Part shown: positions 172-10,113 of the stretch, piece after piece
Layout: each line of letters starts with the position of its first letter
How positions within the stretch are numbered: position 1 is the stretch's first letter
Source of the DNA: a virus
Taxonomy: Duplodnaviria; Heunggongvirae; Uroviricota; Caudoviricetes
Direction: 5' to 3' (one strand)
DNA: 10,113 bases
IMG/VR virus record: IMGVR_UViG_2574179916_000007
Made by a program: the position numbers and the translations under genes
The notes under the pieces: model-generated
Databases searched by the model: none
Told to the model about the DNA's origin: nothing
What the model saw: only the letters and a program-made list of their open reading frames with translations

Positions 172-2301
172 CTATTCCTCAATACCTAACCTGCTTGAAA
201 CCTCAGGCATAACAGTAACCTGAAGGGTTTTTGATGAATCTGTGTTTTTAATTGCTATGCTGATATTGTCAGAAGTGCTGTTATTGTTTGACACTGTTAT
301 AGAGTTTGCATCCACCCCGAGTTTCGAATAAGCATCAGCAAAACTAAGACCAACACTTCCACCAACAACTCTATATGAACCATCAATTCTGAATGACGAT
401 ATATTGTTATTGCTAACATCTCTAATTAGAACCCATATAGAAACACCCCTGAAAACAAGGCTTGCCCCTGATGGTATTTGAAGTGATACAATTCCTGTGG
501 AACCGGGGGGGATACTGCCAGTATATTTAGTTCCGTGCAGATATTTCCCCGGTAGGTCTAAATACGATGTGTCTGGATGTAATAAATTATGTATATGTCT
601 GCTATCTATGCTTCCAGACAGAACCATAGAATCATTGCCATATTCAATTATCCTTCCACCATCGTTACTTATTGTAAGTAATCCTTTGTTTCCTTTATTA
701 TTTCTAACAGTTATATCAGAAGAATCCAGGCGGACAATTGATATATTTTTTTCTGATCCATGACAATAATTTGATGAAATTTCACCTGTAACAAGTGACG
801 TACATAAAATGTCTGAACTTCCATCACTGTCGCCAGTAATAGTGTTGCAGGAAATTAATGCACCATATACCAGACCTGTTGGAGATTCTCCAAATTGCTC
901 TATAGTAATCCGTTTTGTGGTATTTGCTGATATGGTTATATTATGAACATCGTCAGTTTGCGATGTTACTTTGATCCTTGATGAAACTGTATTTCCAGAA
1001 ATAGTAACATTACTTGTATCATCCACCCATAAATATGACGAAAACGTATTACCTGATATGACTGAGTTACTCACCATTGAGTTCTCAAGCTCACATGAAC
1101 CATAGCTATTGTTATGGTCATAATTTCCTATAATCCTTACAAATCCATTCTGGTTAATGAAGTTGTATGATGTTGCATTTTGTCCGCCATAAGTTGAGTT
1201 ATGTGATGTTTCAGCATTTGTAACGCCTATATGTTGAAAATGACCGGCATTTACAGAATCAGGAGCAACTGATGTACACCCTATTACTTTTGTGTTTTTG
1301 ACAATTCTTGAATTAGGGTCATTCTCCAAATAATAGTTTTTTGCAACAAATGCCGTAGAGTAAAAGAAACCTTCAAATCTATTAAATAAAATCTGAATAT
1401 CGTCATAATCTCTTTGGTCTTCATTTGCATAGCAATAAAATGCTCTTGAAGACTCGGAGTAATCCTTGCATTTCTGAACGCCAGATAAAAGTGATCGGAT
1501 TCTGCTAGATTTTATTCTAAATCCGTTGTGAATTAACGTTGCATCACCAACTAATGTTATTGGCTTAAACAATTCAACCTTATCAAAAACAAATTCACCA
1601 CCATAAAATCCAAGTATAGCCCCTTCTGGTACTGCATTAATAGCATTTTGAATTGCTACAGTATCATCTGTTATGCCGTCTCCTTTTGCACCAAAATCAC
1701 GAACACTAATGGTGTCTCTCATCTTATCCTGGAACGTTCGGTACACAGCCCCAGAACCATACTGAATAAACCAACCAAAACCACCAACAACCCCGGCGAT
1801 TGCAGCATCGACATAATTACGCATTGAGCGATTATTTACAGCATCCTGCTCAAGTGATGGATCTGCAAGGTTAGAAATTCTGTTTTGCTTTGCATCGTAA
1901 TATTTTGCAAGCAGAGAGGGCTTCATCAATGCACGTCTGAACCACCCAAAACATTGCTGGATCAGCATCGTCAGGTAGTCAAAGGCATCTTCATGCACTT
2001 CGGGGAAAAATTTTCCCTGATTGCGAAGGTCTGTCTCCTGCACTACATCAAGCACACGATCTATCGTAATTCGCCATCCAGTAGCAAGCGGAGACGGAAG
2101 AACCACAGAACCGCCACTATAAGTGCCCGCCCCAGTTACCGTATAACCGGTATCCAGGACCAATTCTGTTACGTTTCCGTTCAGATCAGACACCTGAACA
2201 ACCAGGTCTGATTTTCTGAAAATTCGAAAAGTATACGGAAACGATGTCGTAACGCCGTTACCGGTGTATTCGTTGTGGTCAACTTCGGTTGAGACCGTCA
2301 T
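172..2301 (-). CDS. Phage tailspike / tail fibre protein with T7 gp17-like N-terminal adaptor and pectate-lyase-like beta-helix (putative polysaccharide depolymerase)
   Basis: 709-aa ORF with ATG at 2301 and GGAG about 8 nt upstream on the minus strand. The N-terminal ~150 aa (YTGNGVTTSFPYTF...VVQVSD...) resemble the T7-type tail-fibre N-terminal domain. The motif DFGAKGDGITDDTVAIQNAI is typical of pectate-lyase-3 / right-handed beta-helix proteins. The C-terminal part is Ser/Asn/Thr-rich and the gene is visibly AT-rich. Confidence 0.85.
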   Translation of the reverse strand: MTVSTEVDHNEYTGNGVTTSFPYTFRIFRKSDLVVQVSDLNGNVTELVLDTGYTVTGAGTYSGGSVVLPSPLATGWRITIDRVLDVVQETDLRNQGKFFPEVHEDAFDYLTMLIQQCFGWFRRALMKPSLLAKYYDAKQNRISNLADPSLEQDAVNNRSMRNYVDAAIAGVVGGFGWFIQYGSGAVYRTFQDKMRDTISVRDFGAKGDGITDDTVAIQNAINAVPEGAILGFYGGEFVFDKVELFKPITLVGDATLIHNGFRIKSSRIRSLLSGVQKCKDYSESSRAFYCYANEDQRDYDDIQILFNRFEGFFYSTAFVAKNYYLENDPNSRIVKNTKVIGCTSVAPDSVNAGHFQHIGVTNAETSHNSTYGGQNATSYNFINQNGFVRIIGNYDHNNSYGSCELENSMVSNSVISGNTFSSYLWVDDTSNVTISGNTVSSRIKVTSQTDDVHNITISANTTKRITIEQFGESPTGLVYGALISCNTITGDSDGSSDILCTSLVTGEISSNYCHGSEKNISIVRLDSSDITVRNNKGNKGLLTISNDGGRIIEYGNDSMVLSGSIDSRHIHNLLHPDTSYLDLPGKYLHGTKYTGSIPPGSTGIVSLQIPSGASLVFRGVSIWVLIRDVSNNNISSFRIDGSYRVVGGSVGLSFADAYSKLGVDANSITVSNNNSTSDNISIAIKNTDSSKTLQVTVMPEVSSRLGIEE

Positions 2302-2404
2302 GTTAAATCTCCAGATAGTCGCAGCACCCGTTGCGCCGCATATCTGGTTATTCTATTACCTGAAAAACCATATATGGATAAAAAGACTATAAATACCAAT
2401 AGAT

Positions 2405-2421
2405 ATTACCTTTCGGGTAAT
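2405..2421. promoter_or_regulatory. Operator-like inverted repeat ATTACC-TTTCG-GGTAAT (copy 1 of 3)
   Basis: Perfect 6-bp arms with a 5-nt spacer, 76 nt upstream of the ATG at 2497. The same TTACC-N5-GGTAA core recurs at 3854..3870 and 4914..4930. Confidence 0.5.
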
Positions 2422-2457
2422 TTGCAAAACGTGCTGGATAGCAAACAAATTATTTGT

Positions 2458-2477
2458 TACTGTATAAACATACAGTT
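2458..2477. promoter_or_regulatory. LexA (SOS) box
   Basis: TACTGTATAAACATACAGTT has perfect CTGT-N8-ACAG half-sites and 17 of 20 matches to the consensus TACTGTATATATATACAGTA. It lies 20 nt upstream of the ATG at 2497 in an AT-rich promoter-like stretch. Confidence 0.7.
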
Positions 2478-2496
2478 ATTGCATGGAGAAGATAAG

Positions 2497-2754
2497 ATGC
2501 AGCAGTATCACTATCCACTGGAAGACGGATTTACCGAAAGGATTCACACGCCGGGAGGCGTCAGGTCACTGGTGGAGGGATCGCACTTGATGAAATTACT
2601 CCGGGATCTCGATAAGGATGGATTTAATGTCGATGGCCCACTTGCCGAACTGACTGCACTGATTAACTACGTCACCAGCTCACAGATGTCTATGCAGGAT
2701 CTGCAAACACATCTCGACTATTGTGCCGAACAATTACGAAAACAAACCACATAA
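2497..2754 (+). CDS. Small (85 aa) antirepressor-like protein, a stand-alone homologue of the Ant C-terminal domain; probably SOS-inducible
   Basis: ATG at 2497 is preceded by GGAG 8 nt upstream. The product (LMKLLRDLDKDGFNVDGPLAELTALINYV...MQDLQTHLDY) aligns with the C-terminus of the 4138..4829 product (LMNLLNQLQEDGHDVSGAAAELTTMFCYI...LRDIQTHAEY). The longer ORF-track start at 2374 would place the LexA box and operator repeat inside coding sequence. Confidence 0.6.
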   Translation: MQQYHYPLEDGFTERIHTPGGVRSLVEGSHLMKLLRDLDKDGFNVDGPLAELTALINYVTSSQMSMQDLQTHLDYCAEQLRKQTT

Positions 2755-2777: not shown

Positions 2778-3284
2778 TTAACAGTCGTAAAATTCTGGGT
2801 CCCACAAACTAGCATCGCGCGGCATGGATTCTAACTTTTTCAGCCGCAAAATTCTGTCACACTCGACAACTAATTTTTGCTTCTGCTCGTCAATTTCTAC
2901 TGTCTTATGTGCTGGTTCATCCCAATAATCCAGAAGGAAGGCATGGCGTTCAGATGTGACCAGATAAATCACATACACGTCACTGGTTGGGATCTTTTTA
3001 TGCTTGTTAGTGGTCTTGTCTTTCTTCCCAGACGCCCAGTTTTTCCAGCATTGTTCCGTACCGCTCTCACCAAACTTGTCAGTATAGTTTCCGATGTTTA
3101 CGTGAACGTGGCGTATGTGATATTCCAGCATTTCTTTCGGTGGATCCCGAAACAGAGTGTCCTTTCCGAAATCCTTATGATGACCGTAGCGCCAGTGATC
3201 TATGAACGCGTTTTTGATAGGTATTAGCTCAGGGTCCTTCCCAAAAATTCCAGGGTGAACCAACCCCTGGAATTTATTCAGCAT
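2778..3284 (-). CDS. Putative toxin of a two-gene module (168 aa); tentatively YafO-like mRNA interferase
   Basis: Start taken at the internal ATG (3284..3282), which overlaps the stop of the upstream gene in the arrangement GATGCTGAATAA (translational coupling). The ORF-track N-terminal extension would overlap the upstream gene by about 100 nt. His-rich motifs DFGKDTLFRDPP...LEYHIRHVHVNIGN and VIYLVTSERHAFLLDYWDEPAH resemble, from memory only, the YafO family (FGRD...HIHL...PEPH). Confidence 0.65.
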   Translation of the reverse strand: MLNKFQGLVHPGIFGKDPELIPIKNAFIDHWRYGHHKDFGKDTLFRDPPKEMLEYHIRHVHVNIGNYTDKFGESGTEQCWKNWASGKKDKTTNKHKKIPTSDVYVIYLVTSERHAFLLDYWDEPAHKTVEIDEQKQKLVVECDRILRLKKLESMPRDASLWDPEFYDC

Positions 3285-3693
3285 CGTCGTAGAGCTCCTG
3301 AGCCATATCTTCGGCAGTGCGTGCAAACATCCTGCGCGAGATTGCATGAGATTTCTCGACGGACATCTTTGGGACCTCATGCATAACATTTTTGGGAGTT
3401 GTGTAATAGCCTATTACAATTTTCACACCTGACTTATGATTAATATCAGCATAATATACTTCTTGTTCAGACGTTTCACGACGAACATAATCTGCCAGTT
3501 TTCCACATTTAAATTCCCCTCCCTGATGTTTTAAAATCTCCTCAACTGCACTATTTTCAGTGAAATACCGAATAAGAAATTTCTGTCCAGACTCTTCAGC
3601 ATGAGGTATAACAGTATTATTGGAAGCCCGAACAATGGCCTTACTCAATATTTCATGGTCTTTATTTTTTTCTGATTTCCTCAAATGCTGCAT
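3274..3693 (-). CDS. Putative antitoxin / partner protein (139 aa from first ATG) of the two-gene module
   Basis: ORF ending 8 nt inside the start of the downstream gene. The first ATG (3693..3691) has AAGAGAG about 8 nt upstream; alternative GTG (3723) or TTG (3729) starts would give up to 151 aa. The C-terminus is acidic (EDMAQELYDDAE), as in many antitoxins. No recognisable DNA-binding motif and no family identified. Confidence 0.6.
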   Translation of the reverse strand: MQHLRKSEKNKDHEILSKAIVRASNNTVIPHAEESGQKFLIRYFTENSAVEEILKHQGGEFKCGKLADYVRRETSEQEVYYADINHKSGVKIVIGYYTTPKNVMHEVPKMSVEKSHAISRRMFARTAEDMAQELYDDAE

Positions 3694-3825
3694 TACTGTA
3701 GCTCTCTTCGTGTTCACGGGCACCCCCAACTACCTCTAGGGTAAACATTCTATCGAAAGTATACGCATACTGGCAAAAAAATAGGCAGGTATTTTCTGAA
3801 ATGGGATAAATCAAACCATATAGGG

Positions 3826-3982: not shown

Positions 3983-4137
3983 ATGTGTAAAGCGCACCTA
4001 TTCTATGGTGGGCTGTGTGGGGGCACCGAAAGGTGCGCCGGGTTCCTTTGTAGCCGGTAAGACCAACTCTGCACAGTTCACCACCATCTGATTGGTCTCA
4101 GCGGTGGTGATTAACCTAACTACAAAGGTGATCGCTA

Positions 4138-4829
4138 TGAATACCAAACCTTCCATCTTTTCCTTTGAGTCATCCTGCCAGATCCGTATGTTCATGATTG
4201 ACGGAGAACCTTGGTTTGTCACCAAAGATGTGTGCAATGCTTTGAATATTGATGTTACACAAGCGAGAAAACTTGATAAAAAAGGCTGGAACAAAAAGGG
4301 GCTGTATTCAATACAGACCCCTGGTGGAATACAAGAACTATCCATCGTTTCAGAATCAGGTCTCTACATCCTTATTCTGCGTTGCAAAGAGGCAATGACT
4401 GAGGGAACGAGAGCATTCAGATTTCTTGAATGGGTTACAGGTGAGGTTCTTCCTCAGATCCGCCGCACCGGAAGTTACATTAAAAACTCGCTCCCGCAGG
4501 AAGAACGCATAAAGATGGTTGCCGACCAGGTAGCCAACGCCACAGCATCAGCAGTGATGCAGGCAATGAAGGTAGAGAACAAAACCTACAGCGCCCCACT
4601 GAAGCCCGGCTACCGCAGCCTGATTCATTCGCCGTCTGGTGTTCTCGGCCTGACGGAGAACTCACTGCTGATGAATCTGCTAAACCAGTTACAGGAAGAC
4701 GGGCACGACGTATCGGGCGCGGCGGCGGAGTTGACCACCATGTTCTGCTACATCGTCGGTGTGAGCAAATGCCTGCGTGATATCCAGACGCACGCGGAGT
4801 ACATCAACGACAAAGCAGGGTTCTTCTGA
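4138..4829 (+). CDS. ant: Phage antirepressor (Bro-N N-terminal domain plus Ant/KilA-C-type C-terminal domain)
   Basis: ATG at 4138 with AAAGGTG 7 nt upstream; the ORF-track start at 4092 is a non-ATG alternative. The N-terminus (FESSCQIRMFMIDGEPWFVTKDVCNALNI...SESGLYILILRCKEAMTEGTRAFRFLEWVTGEVLPQIRRTGSY) matches the Bro-N pattern. The C-terminus is homologous to the 2497..2754 product. Confidence 0.85.
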
Positions 4830-5277: not shown

Positions 5278-5752
5278 TAACGAAGAAACTGAGTTCGAGG
5301 AAGTTGAGGAAGGGCTAAGTAACGAGATCATTCAACACCCAGATGCCTTCACAAGAGTTCTTGATCGCCCTGAAATTCAGGAGATAGTTGTCGCTCACCA
5401 TGCGTTTCAGGGTCCGCTTCCTCCCCCCTATCTGCTTCGCGGGTATCAGGATATTTTACCTGATGCCCCCGAACGCATCTTCCAGCTGACGGAGAAGGAG
5501 TTTGCTCACCGCCAGAAAATGGAGGAAAAGGCACTTGACGGGGCTATTAATAGAGATAAACGTGGGCAGTGGTTTGGCCTGAGTGCAACTATTTTTACAG
5601 TAGCTTGTGCAACATTATTAGGTTTAACAGGTCATGAAGTTCTAGCTGGCACAGTGATCGGTACAGTTGTTGCAGTGGCTGGTATTTTCGTTCTTAGACA
5701 AAAACCAAGCATCAAGAAGAAATCTGAAGACAACAAACCTGAAGAAAAGTAA
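5204..5752 (+). CDS. Hypothetical membrane protein (182 aa): acidic N-terminal region and two predicted C-terminal transmembrane helices
   Basis: ORF overlapping the upstream gene in another frame. Start is ambiguous: ATG 5204 (GGGA about 9 nt upstream) or ATG 5249. Hydrophobic stretches WFGLSATIFTVACATLLGL and LAGTVIGTVVAVAGIFVL are followed by a Lys-rich tail. A conserved-looking QGPLPPPYLLRGY motif is present. A strong terminator follows. Confidence 0.55.
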   Translation: MQEENQKLKECPSTNMQKSIGQPSDNEETEFEEVEEGLSNEIIQHPDAFTRVLDRPEIQEIVVAHHAFQGPLPPPYLLRGYQDILPDAPERIFQLTEKEFAHRQKMEEKALDGAINRDKRGQWFGLSATIFTVACATLLGLTGHEVLAGTVIGTVVAVAGIFVLRQKPSIKKKSEDNKPEEK

Positions 5753-5773
5753 GCCCGCGCTGCGGGCTTTTTT
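5753..5773 (+). terminator. Rho-independent terminator
   Basis: GCCCGC-GCT-GCGGGC hairpin followed by TTTTTT, immediately after the stop codon at 5750..5752. Confidence 0.75.
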
Positions 5774-5845
5774 GTGGACGAAACAAAAGTCAGTGCTACA
5801 CTCATTGACGCCACATTGAGGTGGCTTATAGATGGAAATTTCACA

Positions 5846-6007
5846 ATGAAAAAAGCATTTGCTGCACTGTTCGTTTTGTTGTCTCTGGTAGCTTCAACTC
5901 AGGCCTTTGCCGGTCGTTGTCAGCACGACAGCGATACTGCCGCTGACGGCTCCCGCTGCGGTGGGCGTTCTGCGGATTCCCGCCCTGGCGGCGGTGGCAT
6001 TCGTTAA
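5846..6007 (+). CDS. Small secreted peptide (53 aa precursor with Sec-type signal peptide)
   Basis: ATG at 5846 with GGAAA about 7 nt upstream. The N-terminus MKKAFAALFVLLSLVASTQAFA is a classic signal peptide with an AxA cleavage site. The mature part is Gly/Ser/Asp-rich with two Cys. A possible promoter is TTGACG (5805..5810) with TATAGA (5827..5832). The ORF-track GTG start at 5774 overlaps the upstream terminator. Confidence 0.45.
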   Translation: MKKAFAALFVLLSLVASTQAFAGRCQHDSDTAADGSRCGGRSADSRPGGGGIR

Positions 6008-6035
6008 AAACAAGGCCGCGAAAGCGGCCTGTTTG
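6006..6035. terminator. Bidirectional rho-independent terminator between convergent genes
   Basis: Hairpin GGCCGC-GAAA-GCGGCC at 6014..6029 is flanked by AAAAACAA on one side and TGTTTG on the other, so either strand reads hairpin plus U-rich tract. The hairpin is identical to the one at 2761..2776. Confidence 0.7.
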
Positions 6036-6036
6036 A

Positions 6037-6888
6037 TCACTGTGCAGTTTTCGCTGATCGATTTTCAGCTCTAAATTCAAGAACCGTTTCAATATTTCTT
6101 TCCTTCAGCATATCAATAACATTTTTATTCATTTGACTATCACTGGTTAATAACTGGTAAACGTTGCTTCTCTCTTTATCAGAGTTTTCTTTAACAGCTG
6201 CTTTGCATGCCAAATGCTTATTGAAATTTTCTACATCGCTAGTACAGGAATTTACGGCTGCTGATGAAATATCAGACGCTGAAGAAACACCGTCATCCAA
6301 ACGTTTTATAGCATTTTCTATACATGAGTTAAGGGAATAAACGACAACTGAGCGATACCCTTCAGACGCACACCATTCTAAATTTCTTGAAGGATCGAGT
6401 GGTTTTACTTCGCTGGATTGAATTAACTTGTCAAAAACTGACTTATATTCAATCTGTTTTTTATCTATAGCCCATACTTCAGTAGCTGATTTATAATTCC
6501 CCGTATGCCTATTAACATCAAATCCATGTTTTATAAGCAAATCTGCCCATGAAAGATTTATTGATTCATTGTTATGAGGCCATTTTCCTGTCAGAACCGC
6601 CCCCATAGACCCCATATATCCGCCATATGATGGTATAGCACCATGGCTCAGTAACTTCTCTGCAACCACAGGGCAATTAATTACATAAGAGGCGTAAAGC
6701 CCATTCCATAAAGCCCCTCTATAGTAATCGCCACGATTAGGTTCTTTTAAGTCGATAGCCTTTGATAATTGTTCGCACGTTTTGCATGCATCAAAGTTAT
6801 CCTTATTGCATTGCAATGAACTGGCAGCTGTAGGATTTACAGAGACTATTGAAAGCACTATGCCAAAAAACAAATTTATTTTTTTCAT
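6037..6888 (-). CDS. Secreted or periplasmic protein of unknown function (283 aa), AT-rich moron at the end of the structural operon
   Basis: ATG at 6888 lies 1 nt after the TAG stop of the upstream 1065-aa gene (TAGGATG), implying coupling. The N-terminus MKKINLFFGIVLSIVSVNPTAA is a signal peptide and is not a lipobox. The mature protein has multiple Cys. The gene is visibly lower in GC than the upstream gene. Segments VAEKLLSHGA and ADLLIKHGFDVN weakly resemble ankyrin-repeat helices. Confidence 0.75.
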   Translation of the reverse strand: MKKINLFFGIVLSIVSVNPTAASSLQCNKDNFDACKTCEQLSKAIDLKEPNRGDYYRGALWNGLYASYVINCPVVAEKLLSHGAIPSYGGYMGSMGAVLTGKWPHNNESINLSWADLLIKHGFDVNRHTGNYKSATEVWAIDKKQIEYKSVFDKLIQSSEVKPLDPSRNLEWCASEGYRSVVVYSLNSCIENAIKRLDDGVSSASDISSAAVNSCTSDVENFNKHLACKAAVKENSDKERSNVYQLLTSDSQMNKNVIDMLKERNIETVLEFRAENRSAKTAQ

Positions 6889-6889
6889 C

Positions 6890-9800
6890 CTATTTCATCT
6901 GCTCTTCAACTTTATTTAGTAATGGTGATATCGCCCACAGATTCTGAAAAGGTAGCATTTTACGGACAGCGTGGGTTTGCTGGCTGTCAAATTCTCCGTT
7001 AAGTACACCATTTGCAACCGTCGCGGCATCACCGCCAAGATCAAAGGTAGGACCAAGTAAAGCACCAATAGCATTACGACTCTGAAACCTTGATACCGGA
7101 GGCGCACCAAACATCGCGCCAAGACCAAACCTACCGCCGCTTATGTTCTCAACGGTATTCAGCGGCTCAGAGAGCCAGCCAAGCATTCCGCCCCGGTCGA
7201 TCCCCTCTTTCACAAGGTTATTCCAGCTGTAGTCGATATCGCGACCGCTTAACTTCTGTTTCATCATATAGACCATTGAGCCAAGCGCAATCGTGCCAAG
7301 CGCACCAAGATAGAATGCAGCATCGCCCTGCTGGATACCAGATACTAGCACCCTGTTATGCTGTGCGAAGATAAACGTTTTGAACTGCGTGATCATCTTC
7401 CAGCCTTCTTTACTAAAAAACAGCGGTGTATCACCTACGCCAGGCGTTACAATCACTGAGTCTACATCTTTCAGCACTGCAGACTGGAAAATCTCTCTAG
7501 CGAAACGGTCATCCCACAGATGACTATGCCCGGTTAACAGCCCGTCCATATCCTCTCCGTGCTTCCCGAATTGCTCCCCGATTCGGCGCAGAACATCTTC
7601 ATTGATGCCGACCTGTGCCATCTTCCGCATTTCACTTTTGGAGAGCGTGCCACCAGCAGAAACTTGGCGAGCCGCGTCAAGTATCCTCGACTGCACTATC
7701 ATCCCAGACCATGATTTAAGTGCGCTGTTCCACTGATTCATCAGCGTCCAGTTACCGAATTTCTGCGTCATCCAGTTCAGACCTCGCTCAGCGGCGCTTC
7801 TCCGGCTATAGGGGTCAGTAAGATCCGCTATAGCCTTTGTGCGCGTAGACAGGACATAATCAAGCCCAACTGCCATTTCTCGCAAATCCCTGGTTGCAAT
7901 TTTCACTGAGTCCATATTTTTAAGCATGCTTACCATTGGTCCGAGAGATTTTCTCAGGCCATGCTGCATCATCGGTCGCATCAGATCAGTTGCAGCGGAG
8001 ACGGTCATTCCACCAAGCAAACGGAGGAAGTTAATATTCCTAGCAACTCGCCCGGCACGAACAAAGAAACTGCGTGGATCTTGAGGTGCGCCGTAAGTAC
8101 CAAGCAGTCGGTCACGCATAGCCGTAATATCCCTAATATCAGCCTCCCGTTGCTTCTCAAGAGCTGCACGTCGTTTAGGTGTTTTAGCCTCTTTTATTAG
8201 CCGGGTATATTCCTCACTAACCTGACGGATTTGCTCCCCCATATCTTTACGGCCAAACTGCGCAGTCAGCTCAATTTCTGGTGCCACCTGCCGGAGATAA
8301 CTTTCCATGATGTAGTTAACATCTGATTCAAGAAAATCTTCTATACGCTCATCAGGAATAAGCAGCGTTCGGCTTTTAGTGAAACCAGCCCGACCAACGA
8401 GTCTCTCTGGGATAATATCGGCTGGTACAAGCCCGGAAGGTGCGCCTATTATTTTATTCACGATCTCGTCAGCAGCGTCCTCTGCTTCCTCTCGGGATAG
8501 AGGCTCCATCTGCTTCAGTGCTCGCTCGCGGCTTGCATTCAGCCTTGTGGTTGAATTTGCCCGTTTTTGCAGTCGGCGAAGCTCAGAACGATATTTCCGT
8601 GGATTATCCAGCAACTCCATATGGCGCTGATAGACAGGAAGCTCACTCTTTGCCTGCGCTATATCATCAAGGCGTGTTTTAAGGTCAGAGCTTTCTTTCA
8701 TCATTCTTGCCTGAAGTTTTTCTGATGAAGTCTCGGCCAACTCTTTTTCTATTCTTGTAAGACGCGCCTGTGTGTCAGTCTCCTGAGATATAAGCTTATT
8801 TCGTTTATCCAGTTCTTCCATGAGTAGAATTTTTTTACCAGACCATTTCTCCGCTTCAGCGATTTCACTAGCGAGAGCATCAGCGCGCGGTGCTGATTCC
8901 TCTGCAGTTTTTAGCAATGAATTTATCTTTTCAATTCGCTGACCTGCTTTGTCAGCACCTTTGGCACTAATCCCTTGTATCCAGTTGGCAATTCGCCCTC
9001 TGAATTCAGTGCGGTCGGAAAGTATCTTATCGAACTTATAAATGCGGGGAAGATAACTCTTCGCCGTCACGACATCGATATCCTCAGGAAGGATCCCCAA
9101 TTCCTGCATACGGGCTTTTGTGGTCTCAAAAATGGGGCGGATTCTGGCGGCTGCTTGTGAAACCTCAGGAATATCACTCTGATCACCACGGCGCATAGCC
9201 ATGCCAACAGCTTCATTGAAATCAATAAAGTTCATCCTCTTCACGCCGCGGGCGCTGACAGATTTGCTGTACTGCTGGTAAGCATCACGAGTAGCTTCCA
9301 TCTGCTTATAAAGCATGGCGTCGTATTGCTTAATCTTAGTCTCGACTGCCGTAAACGTAGCCAACCCCTCATCATTTTTGGCGAAGAAATAGTTATTTTC
9401 GGCAAGCTGCTGGTTAATCTGACGGGAAACAAGAGATGGTGATTGCGCCAAGCGGCCAGCAGGAGTGACACTCAACGTTTTGTTAGCAAGTCCAAGTCCA
9501 GCAAGCTGTTCCTGATCGAGTGTGGTATTGAAAACCTGAGCTGCACCAATGCTTTGAGGAGAATCCATACCTCGCAAATGATTACCTACTGAGTTAACCA
9601 CTGCCTCGCGCGCGCTAGGTCCAGCAAGTAGCTGTGCACCAGCACCAAGGATCCCACCAACGAGAGCATCAACAACAACGTTCGATACGCTCTCCATCGG
9701 TGAGCGAGCTTCCTGAGTGGCCTGCAATGCGGCCTCTGAAGCAACACTGCCAGCAGCATTGGCTAAAGCAAAACGTCCGGCTGTTTCTGCAATACGACCG

Positions 9801-10087
9801 CCACGAACGACAGCGCCGAACGGAATAAACATAGAAATCGCATTGAATGGATCTGCTAATCTCATTGCTACAGAAGAGACTGTACCAGCAAATCCCAAGC
9901 CTGAATTGTATTCCATGTCAGCTCTCTGCTGATCGATTCGATGTTTAATTGCCATTGTTTCTTCATGCGAACCGGAGTTGATAAACGAATCTGCAAAATC
10001 TTCATAGCCTTTAATATCTGCTGCATCGTTATCAAATGGGTTATATCCTTCAACCCTGTTAGACTGGCCCCCTGAATCTCCAGACAA
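6890..10087 (-). CDS. Large virion-associated protein (1065 aa); candidate internal/ejection protein or tape-measure-like protein
   Basis: Uninterrupted 3.2-kb ORF. It is predominantly alpha-helical with charged coiled-coil-like central segments (for example [34 protein letters not shown]) and Gly/Ala-rich hydrophobic segments near both ends. It occupies the last position of a structural operon before the immunity module and tailspike. The start is probably TTG at 10087, 6 nt after an in-frame TGA; the next ATG is at 9955. No catalytic motif was recognised. Confidence 0.8.
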
Positions 10088-10113
10088 CCAATATCACTTA
10101 AATAAGTGATAGT

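Follow-up and report, generated by a model that had tools for sequence, protein, structure and literature searches.

What kind of protein is encoded by the AT-rich gene that directly follows a large ejection-protein gene in the virus record IMGVR_UViG_2574179916_000007, and what might it do for the phage that carries it? The stretch of DNA analysed here (10,113 nucleotides (nt), hereafter the window) comes from a phiV10/epsilon15-like (Uetakevirus) temperate podophage, and the gene in question, at positions 6037-6888, encodes a protein of 283 amino acids (aa). An earlier reading by a model that saw only the letters (the sequence-only reading) had described it as a secreted protein gene coupled to the end of its upstream neighbour. 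The best overall explanation that we can offer, which we hold at about even chances, is that the product is exported ankyrin-like accessory cargo that would bind or neutralise something in the periplasm. The anatomy and localisation contained in this explanation are very probably right, while the specific mechanism of exclusion or neutralisation, argued by analogy, is possible but doubtful. The features on which the argument depends are the following.

6037..6888, minus strand: coding sequence of the predicted exported two-domain protein of 283 aa, ATG start, stop codon included; RefSeq WP_000723561.1, PHROG 6118.
6820..6888, minus strand: predicted Sec-type signal peptide, residues 1-23; n-h-c organisation kept in 17/17 orthologues, as judged by inspection and hydropathy.
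6409..6819, minus strand: N-terminal domain (N-domain), about residues 24-160; Cys-rich cap (C27, C35-x2-C38, C72) and about two degenerate ankyrin-like repeats.
6040..6408, minus strand: C-terminal domain (C-domain), residues 161-283; predicted all-helical, with four invariant Cys and the motif W-x2-C...LDDG-x-S-x-ASDI...C...VLE-x-R; the fast-evolving half.
6886..6892, minus strand: stop-start junction TAG-G-ATG between the ejection-protein gene and the 283-aa gene; the same 1-nt junction occurs in Klebsiella.
6005..6030, minus strand: intrinsic terminator, stem AGGCCGC-TTTC-GCGGCCT followed by TGTTTTT, located by a terminator scan (6030-6013) between convergent genes.
6890..10113, minus strand: 3′ part of the gene for a 1129-aa internal-virion (ejection) protein in the T7 gp16-like position; PHROG 342/16310; cut by the window end.

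The gene runs from an ATG at 6886-6888 to a TGA at 6037-6039. Its product is labelled 'hypothetical protein' in RefSeq (WP_000723561.1), and a literature search found this accession mentioned in no paper. We could rule out a chance open reading frame (ORF), because PHROG 6118, a family with no assigned function, matches the protein across 283/283 positions (E 1e-200), because orthologues are found down to ~40% identity, and because the ratio of nonsynonymous to synonymous substitution (dN/dS) is 0.09-0.16 between those orthologue pairs whose dS is unsaturated. The ORF is a genuine phage gene under purifying selection. No RNA family from Rfam was found within 5600-7200.

The leader MKKINLFFGIVLSIVSVNPTAAS contains two Lys residues, a 10-residue hydrophobic core with a mean Kyte-Doolittle value of 2.9 and a c-region of small residues. 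All 17 full-length orthologues have a leader of this kind, with one to three N-terminal Lys or Arg, a 10-residue core averaging 2.1-3.0 on the same scale, and small-residue c-regions (TAAS/S, AIA/G, ALA/K); the n-h-c organisation is retained even though leader sequence identity falls to 13-25% among them. Signal peptidase I would be expected to cleave after A22, S23 or S24. The mature protein has eight Cys, each of them invariant in 17/17 orthologues, the first lying two to five residues from the leader c-region. An even number of Cys is compatible with disulfides made by DsbA, as predicted, and four are kept in stand-alone relatives of the N-domain and two in those of the C-domain. A 19-residue hydropathy profile revealed no further transmembrane-like segment in the mature part (maximum 0.99), nor did we find a lipobox L-[AS]-[GA]-C, the residues ahead of the first Cys being SLQ, AGQ or AK in the orthologues. 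Lipoprotein and membrane-protein readings were ruled out on these two grounds. From the sequence we infer Sec export, cleavage by signal peptidase I and probably four periplasmic disulfides; the signal peptide and several cysteines noticed in the sequence-only reading thus hold across the whole orthologue set, by inspection and hydropathy.

An exhaustive profile search against 1.84 billion representatives returned 68 relatives, and these divide the protein into two parts. The relatives of positions 1-155 are stand-alone proteins of ~160-200 aa with signal peptides; those of positions 157-272 form a separate set, likewise stand-alone (110-160 aa) and with signal peptides, and among the 68 relatives both domains occur together only in the prophage family itself. 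In the N-domain, VAEKLLSHGAIPSYGG and WADLLIKHGFDVN can be recognised by eye, after the Cys cap, as the helix-2/loop parts of two ankyrin-like repeats. When the N-domain family profile was searched against the PDB, it matched Ankyrin-1/2 and designed ankyrin proteins (DARPins) with E values of 2.6e-5 to 4e-4, while a single-sequence PDB search gave DARPins only, at E ~1. The AlphaFold2 (AF2) model of the protein has a predicted local distance difference test score (pLDDT) of 81.8, lower in the N-domain, and the top Foldseek matches of this model were all ankyrin proteins, though weak ones (best E 0.047 in PDB, with a template-modelling score of ~0.5 on the target, and 0.007 in BFVD). The Pfam models Ank and Ank_2-5 were not matched, nor was any Pfam family at E <= 0.01 for the protein, and ten stand-alone N-domain relatives matched no Pfam family either, except in unrelated regions of two large proteins. 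'Degenerate ankyrin-like' therefore seems a fair label for the N-domain, short of full membership of the family; the possible ankyrin-like helices that had been suspected from the letters alone are seen at the profile and fold levels only. The structure prediction and Foldseek search that had been proposed as a check gave no match to a phage structural protein in PDB or BFVD.

The C-domain carries the signature W-x2-C...LDDG-x-S-[PST]-ASDI-A...C...VL-x-x-R, and its AF2 model is all-helical and confident (pLDDT 90.4). It has no Pfam match and no PDB match by profile search; Pfam gave nothing useful for 20 stand-alone proteins related to one domain or the other, and scans of the 283-aa protein with Pfam, NCBIfam and PADLOC (E <= 0.1) were equally without a match. 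By its sequence, the C-terminal half is best described as an undescribed, putatively secreted domain family that also occurs on other mobile elements. We considered a lysozyme inhibitor of the LprI/DUF1311 type, because a periplasmic inhibitor encoded beside a gp16-like gene would make sense, and rejected it, there being no Pfam match, while the upstream 1129-aa protein has no lytic transglycosylase domain and its PHROG 342 match begins at profile position 251. The two halves also differ in pace: at the farthest orthologues the N-domain retains 52-56% identity, with 37/134 columns invariant, whereas the C-domain falls to 25-28%, with 15/123 columns invariant.

The genomic settings of the stand-alone relatives differ as well. 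In Burkholderiaceae the N-domain homologues share a conserved setting on the chromosome, among genes for a Lon-like protease, a Usp, an esterase, a pyridoxal phosphate (PLP) decarboxylase and an ABC transporter, and beside neither toxins nor phage genes; the remaining contexts are also ordinary chromosomal ones, and a toxin-immunity context was looked for among these homologues and not found. A stand-alone C-domain gene of Thauera sinica adjoins an integrase, ahead of a P4-type primase, and another, in a metagenomic prophage, sits beside a GH108 endolysin and a 699-aa protein. In Methylotenera the C-domain forms the C-terminus of a longer secreted protein at a chromosomal locus.

The gene stands out from its surroundings in composition, having a GC content of 37.0% (28.9% at third codon positions) against 48.3% (44.4%) for the ejection-protein gene upstream (z = -6.6), as the sequence-only reading had stated. 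The same reading gave the upstream gene a length of 1065 aa; the contrast in composition stands and the length does not, since the window end cuts this ORF and the true product is 1129 aa in RefSeq and in Escherichia phage EC.W1-9 (PP445227), which is 100% identical to the window over 5700-7300. Two families, PHROG 342 ('internal virion protein') and PHROG 16310, match the 1129-aa protein, which PGAP names 'DUF919 family'; it is preceded, in order of transcription, by head genes, a T7 gp14-family core protein and a 915-aa protein. Its gene ends in ATG AAA TAG (stop at 6890-6892), followed by a single G (6889) and by ATG AAA AAA from 6888, so the start codon does lie 1 nt past the upstream stop, as had been noted. 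There is no usable Shine-Dalgarno sequence at normal spacing ahead of this ATG, and coupled translation is therefore the likely mode of initiation. Only 1 nt separates the two genes in E. coli and in Klebsiella, but the distance is 11 nt in Serratia and one metagenomic form, and 31 nt in Morganella, where the gap contains a GAGG of its own at good spacing. It would follow that co-transcription is conserved and tight coupling is not, and the translational coupling proposed earlier is thus retained for E. coli and Klebsiella but not for Serratia or Morganella.

On the other side, the terminator begins 7 nt past the TGA, and an identical 46 bp is annotated as a terminator in the phiV10 record. 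We found no terminator between the ejection-protein gene and the 283-aa gene, and a consensus scan detected no sigma-70-like promoter in 5600-7400 (shuffles 3.0 +/- 1.9), a scan that a weak or non-sigma-70 promoter could escape. The 283-aa gene is the last cistron of a T7 gp14/gp15/gp16-like ejection-protein block, on the same strand, and is followed by the terminator of the block. The shared strand, the 1-nt gap, the absence of a terminator in between and the strong one directly after therefore point to co-transcription with the late genes, and we infer late co-expression, in keeping with the sequence-only reading.

Of 5426 complete E. coli genomes, 106 (~2%) carry the 852-bp gene with at least 95% identity, always on the chromosome; it was also found in 30 IMG/VR contigs, and a plasmid collection contained no homologue. 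A search of 5.8 billion proteins yielded 22 proteins, with identities of 84-89% in Klebsiella, 61% in Serratia rubidaea, 54-59% in metagenomic forms and 39-42% in Morganella/Providencia. In every case examined (the synteny check covered E. coli, Klebsiella, Serratia, Morganella and IMG/VR contigs) the gene directly follows a ~1130-aa gene on the same strand. When E. coli was compared with Klebsiella, Serratia and Morganella, the identity of the 283-aa protein was 85.5, 57.4 and 42.7%, respectively, that of the gp15-like protein 82.0, 57.4 and 43.8%, and that of the gp16-like protein 89.7, 78.7 and 55.4%. Such co-divergence with the ejection module across four genera argues for a long-term resident and against a recent insertion. 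The GC content of the gene is 35-40% in each of these lineages, against 48-54% for its neighbour, and a low GC kept despite ~40% protein identity would accordingly be a maintained property rather than a trace of recent transfer.

The gene is nevertheless dispensable and exchangeable, since phages with 92-99.7% identical upstream genes hold other cassettes in its place. Klebsiella phage ST512-KPC3phi13.3, whose gp16-like protein has 91.8% identity, encodes in this slot an unrelated, leaderless protein of 204 aa. E. coli UID2309220026 and CS5L share the gp16-like end at 99.7% identity, but there a different cassette follows, composed of a secreted 147-aa protein with a leader and several Cys, on the opposite strand, and a 149-aa protein. 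In phiV10 the slot is filled by a 46-aa protein with two transmembrane segments, ahead of the same terminator. Among the E. coli genomes, 120 have the gp16-like 3′ end and 106 the 283-aa gene. The comparisons show what appears to be old, exchangeable cargo that has co-diverged with the ejection module. The idea that this is a position for non-structural cargo agrees well with the phiV10, Klebsiella and alternative E. coli occupants, and with sieA in P22. Some E. coli copies are called only as C-terminal fragments of 189-192 aa; in one truncated copy the 280 nt that come after the upstream gene are left uncalled, and another copy adjoins an IS1 transposase fragment. The gene would therefore seem to be decaying in some lysogens, as is expected of prophage decay.

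How might such a protein act? Most of the picture drawn in the sequence-only reading, that of secreted non-structural cargo with ankyrin-like helices, is upheld, and its suggestion of lysogenic conversion or exclusion stands as a hypothesis. Transcription would occur together with the late genes, and translation, at least in E. coli and Klebsiella, by termination-reinitiation; the product would be exported by Sec, lose its leader near residues 22-24 and be oxidised to four disulfides in the periplasm, a route that would keep it from being packaged into heads, since these assemble in the cytoplasm. In the periplasm it would act as a soluble binder or neutraliser, and binding and neutralising is, to our knowledge, the only job of ankyrin-type modules. 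The preferred target would be a foreign protein that crosses or acts in the periplasm, the lead candidate being the ejection apparatus of a superinfecting phage (exclusion) and the alternative an injected bacterial toxin (orphan immunity). We rank this explanation first because the periplasmic ankyrin proteins Bd3460 and Tli neutralise envelope-acting enzymes, and because P22 keeps an exclusion gene in the corresponding slot. Several points weigh against it. Classical exclusion or immunity needs expression in lysogens, and no sigma-70-like promoter was found in 5600-7400; no homology ties the protein to a target, and no homology was found to known defence proteins (PADLOC) or to NCBIfam or Pfam families. 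The N-domain is the conserved half, as would be expected of a protein aimed at a conserved host target rather than engaged in an arms race with phages, and its Burkholderiaceae homologues lie in ordinary chromosomal contexts and not beside toxins or phage genes. The ankyrin assignment is itself weak (best Foldseek E 0.047 in PDB, Pfam Ank models unmatched), and the signal peptide was judged by inspection and hydropathy. A narrower version, in which the N-domain would dock on a conserved periplasmic element while the fast C-domain recognises the T7 gp15/gp16-like tube of incoming relatives, would account for the shared travels and divergence of the gene and that module, and we consider it improbable.

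A different account would make the protein a non-essential helper in the phage's own lytic cycle, produced late and exported to condition the envelope of the producing cell, whether by attaching to a protease, nuclease or cell-wall enzyme of the host periplasm, by tuning lysis, or by sparing progeny genomes from dying cells. Its seemingly exclusive late-operon expression, with no promoter of its own found, and its long co-divergence with the ejection module would suit such a role, and the conserved N-domain and the housekeeping-like chromosomal stand-alone relatives would fit a conserved host target. Against this, the gene is missing from phages whose ejection genes are 92-99.7% identical and is thus not needed for the cycle, the lysis cassette is located elsewhere, and no similarity to known lysis regulators was found; we regard the helper role as unlikely, if worth keeping in mind. 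Shiga toxin is made from a late operon and released when an induced prophage lyses its cell, and by the same logic the protein could be an effector directed at eukaryotes, folded in the periplasm and set free at prophage lysis, that would dampen phagocytosis or inflammation as ANKp does. The gene lies in the late operon and its product is predicted to be rich in disulfides, the known carriers are all animal-associated Enterobacterales, many of them clinical isolates, and a phage-encoded ankyrin-like protein with a signal peptide is the architecture reported for ANKp (10.1101/608950). Yet there are only about two degenerate repeats, which the Pfam Ank models do not match, the relatives of both domains are mostly environmental (Burkholderiaceae, Methylotenera, Thauera), and no similarity to known eukaryote-directed effectors was found, so that an effector, too, seems improbable to us. 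The sequence-only reading had also raised the alternative of a virion-associated, periplasm-acting protein, which would then have its effect in the next host. The gene adjoins the ejection-protein genes and is presumably co-expressed with them, but a predicted cleavable Sec leader and eight conserved Cys would place folding outside the cytoplasm, where heads are assembled, the protein has no sequence or fold match to structural proteins (PHROG, PDB, BFVD), and its gene can be replaced by unrelated ones; for a Sec-exported, disulfide-rich protein we give this alternative hardly any credence.

At present, then, the protein adds to the many conserved hypothetical cargo proteins, with a localisation that can be predicted well. 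Roughly 2% of the complete E. coli genomes, in many cases from clinical isolates, carry its gene, as do prophages of Klebsiella, Serratia, Morganella and Providencia and EC.W1-9, a phage proposed for therapy. If the protein blocks phages or neutralises injected toxins, it would bear on the choice of therapy phages and on competition between strains; if, once released by lysis, it is active on animal cells, prophages would be shown to bear a new factor for interaction with the host. Were the ejection tube its target, the stand-alone C-domain family would be a widespread and unrecognised periplasmic anti-phage cargo. The analysis also defines two uncharacterised families of secreted domains, one Cys-capped and ankyrin-like and the other helical with the 'LDDGxSPASDIA' motif, neither of which has a Pfam model or a solved structure.

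The region beyond the terminator encodes a small secreted peptide in convergent orientation, a membrane protein with DUF2335 and a Bro-N antirepressor, along with a toxin-like protein of the YafO family, the tailspike and the lysis functions. The small gene at 5774-6007 (plus strand) encodes a leader-bearing, Gly/Arg-rich peptide (PHROG 3117/14503, 'membrane associated protein'; 53 aa in the PGAP form); it converges with the 283-aa gene, and the terminator is common to both. A 1701-bp query was matched in 499 E. coli genomes, mostly through the 5700-6032 stretch that includes this small gene (query 1369-1701), against only 106 that carry the 283-aa gene. An ORF of 126 aa at 2374-2754 (plus strand) repeats the C-terminal module of the Bro-N antirepressor (4092-4829, plus strand), both matching PHROG 450 and 15539, which points to partial duplication or to an Ant C-domain present as a separate copy. 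The 203-aa ORF at 2778-3389 (minus strand), whose counterpart PGAP names as a type II toxin of the YafO family, shares part of its length with a 151-aa ORF upstream of it (3274-3729, minus strand; PHROG 9503 of unknown function); the two, for which Pfam and PADLOC gave no match, may form a toxin-antitoxin-like pair inside the antirepressor region. The tailspike gene (172-2301, minus strand) is a mosaic of an epsilon15-type conserved head-binding 5′ part with 46% GC and a pectate-lyase-like receptor part with 36% GC. Its product is the 709-aa form found in prophages such as FDAARGOS_497, whereas EC.W1-9 has a 625-aa 'eliminase', and the window therefore probably derives from a prophage rather than from that phage isolate. 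The authors of the EC.W1-9 preprint assigned their phage to Uetakevirus, beside phiV10 and TL-2011b, and described it as lacking an integrase and safe for therapy. The GenBank record annotates an integrase (PP445227.1 34301-35551), and in contrast to the claim of no integrase, the late-gene module of EC.W1-9 is present as a chromosomal prophage in >100 E. coli genomes.

Among known systems, the closest by description is ANKp of the sponge-symbiont 'Ankyphages' (Jahn et al., 10.1101/608950), a phage-encoded ankyrin protein with a signal peptide, for which secretion from the infected cell was argued and not a place in the virion. Both proteins are encoded by phages and combine an N-terminal signal peptide with an ankyrin-type module and no transmembrane domain. 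However, ANKp has canonical Pfam ankyrin repeats, while the 283-aa protein is not matched by those models and has in addition a cap rich in Cys and an undescribed helical domain as its second half; the two also belong to different phage lineages and hosts. Closer in presumed action are Bd3460, a periplasmic ankyrin protein that blocks DD-endopeptidases of Bdellovibrio (PMC4686830), and Tli, an immunity protein of Enterobacter cloacae that controls a phospholipase of the type VI secretion system (10.1101/2023.03.28.534661). The likeness is one of type and not of sequence similarity: these are ankyrin-type proteins of the Gram-negative periplasm that bind and control envelope-acting enzymes. The gene for each lies beside that of the enzyme or effector it controls, and Tli, moreover, is a lipoprotein, whereas the 283-aa gene lies in a phage late operon with no toxin or hydrolase neighbour, and its product has no lipobox.

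In position the gene resembles P22 sieA, non-structural cargo in the slot between gene 16, the last of the ejection genes, and mnt/arc/ant (the Ant-type region) with the tailspike. SieA, however, is a non-homologous inner-membrane protein encoded on the opposite strand with its own promoter, in contrast to a predicted soluble protein whose gene shares the strand of the late genes and for which no promoter was detected. Families of superinfection-exclusion or anti-phage proteins gave no PADLOC match at E <= 0.1 and no NCBIfam match. Like a moron, the 283-aa gene deviates in composition, is followed by a terminator and is present or absent among close relatives; unlike one, it has no detected promoter of its own and has co-diverged with its neighbours in four genera, and so is no recent insertion. 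The 283-aa protein is a further, uncharacterised member of the phage-encoded exported accessory proteins.

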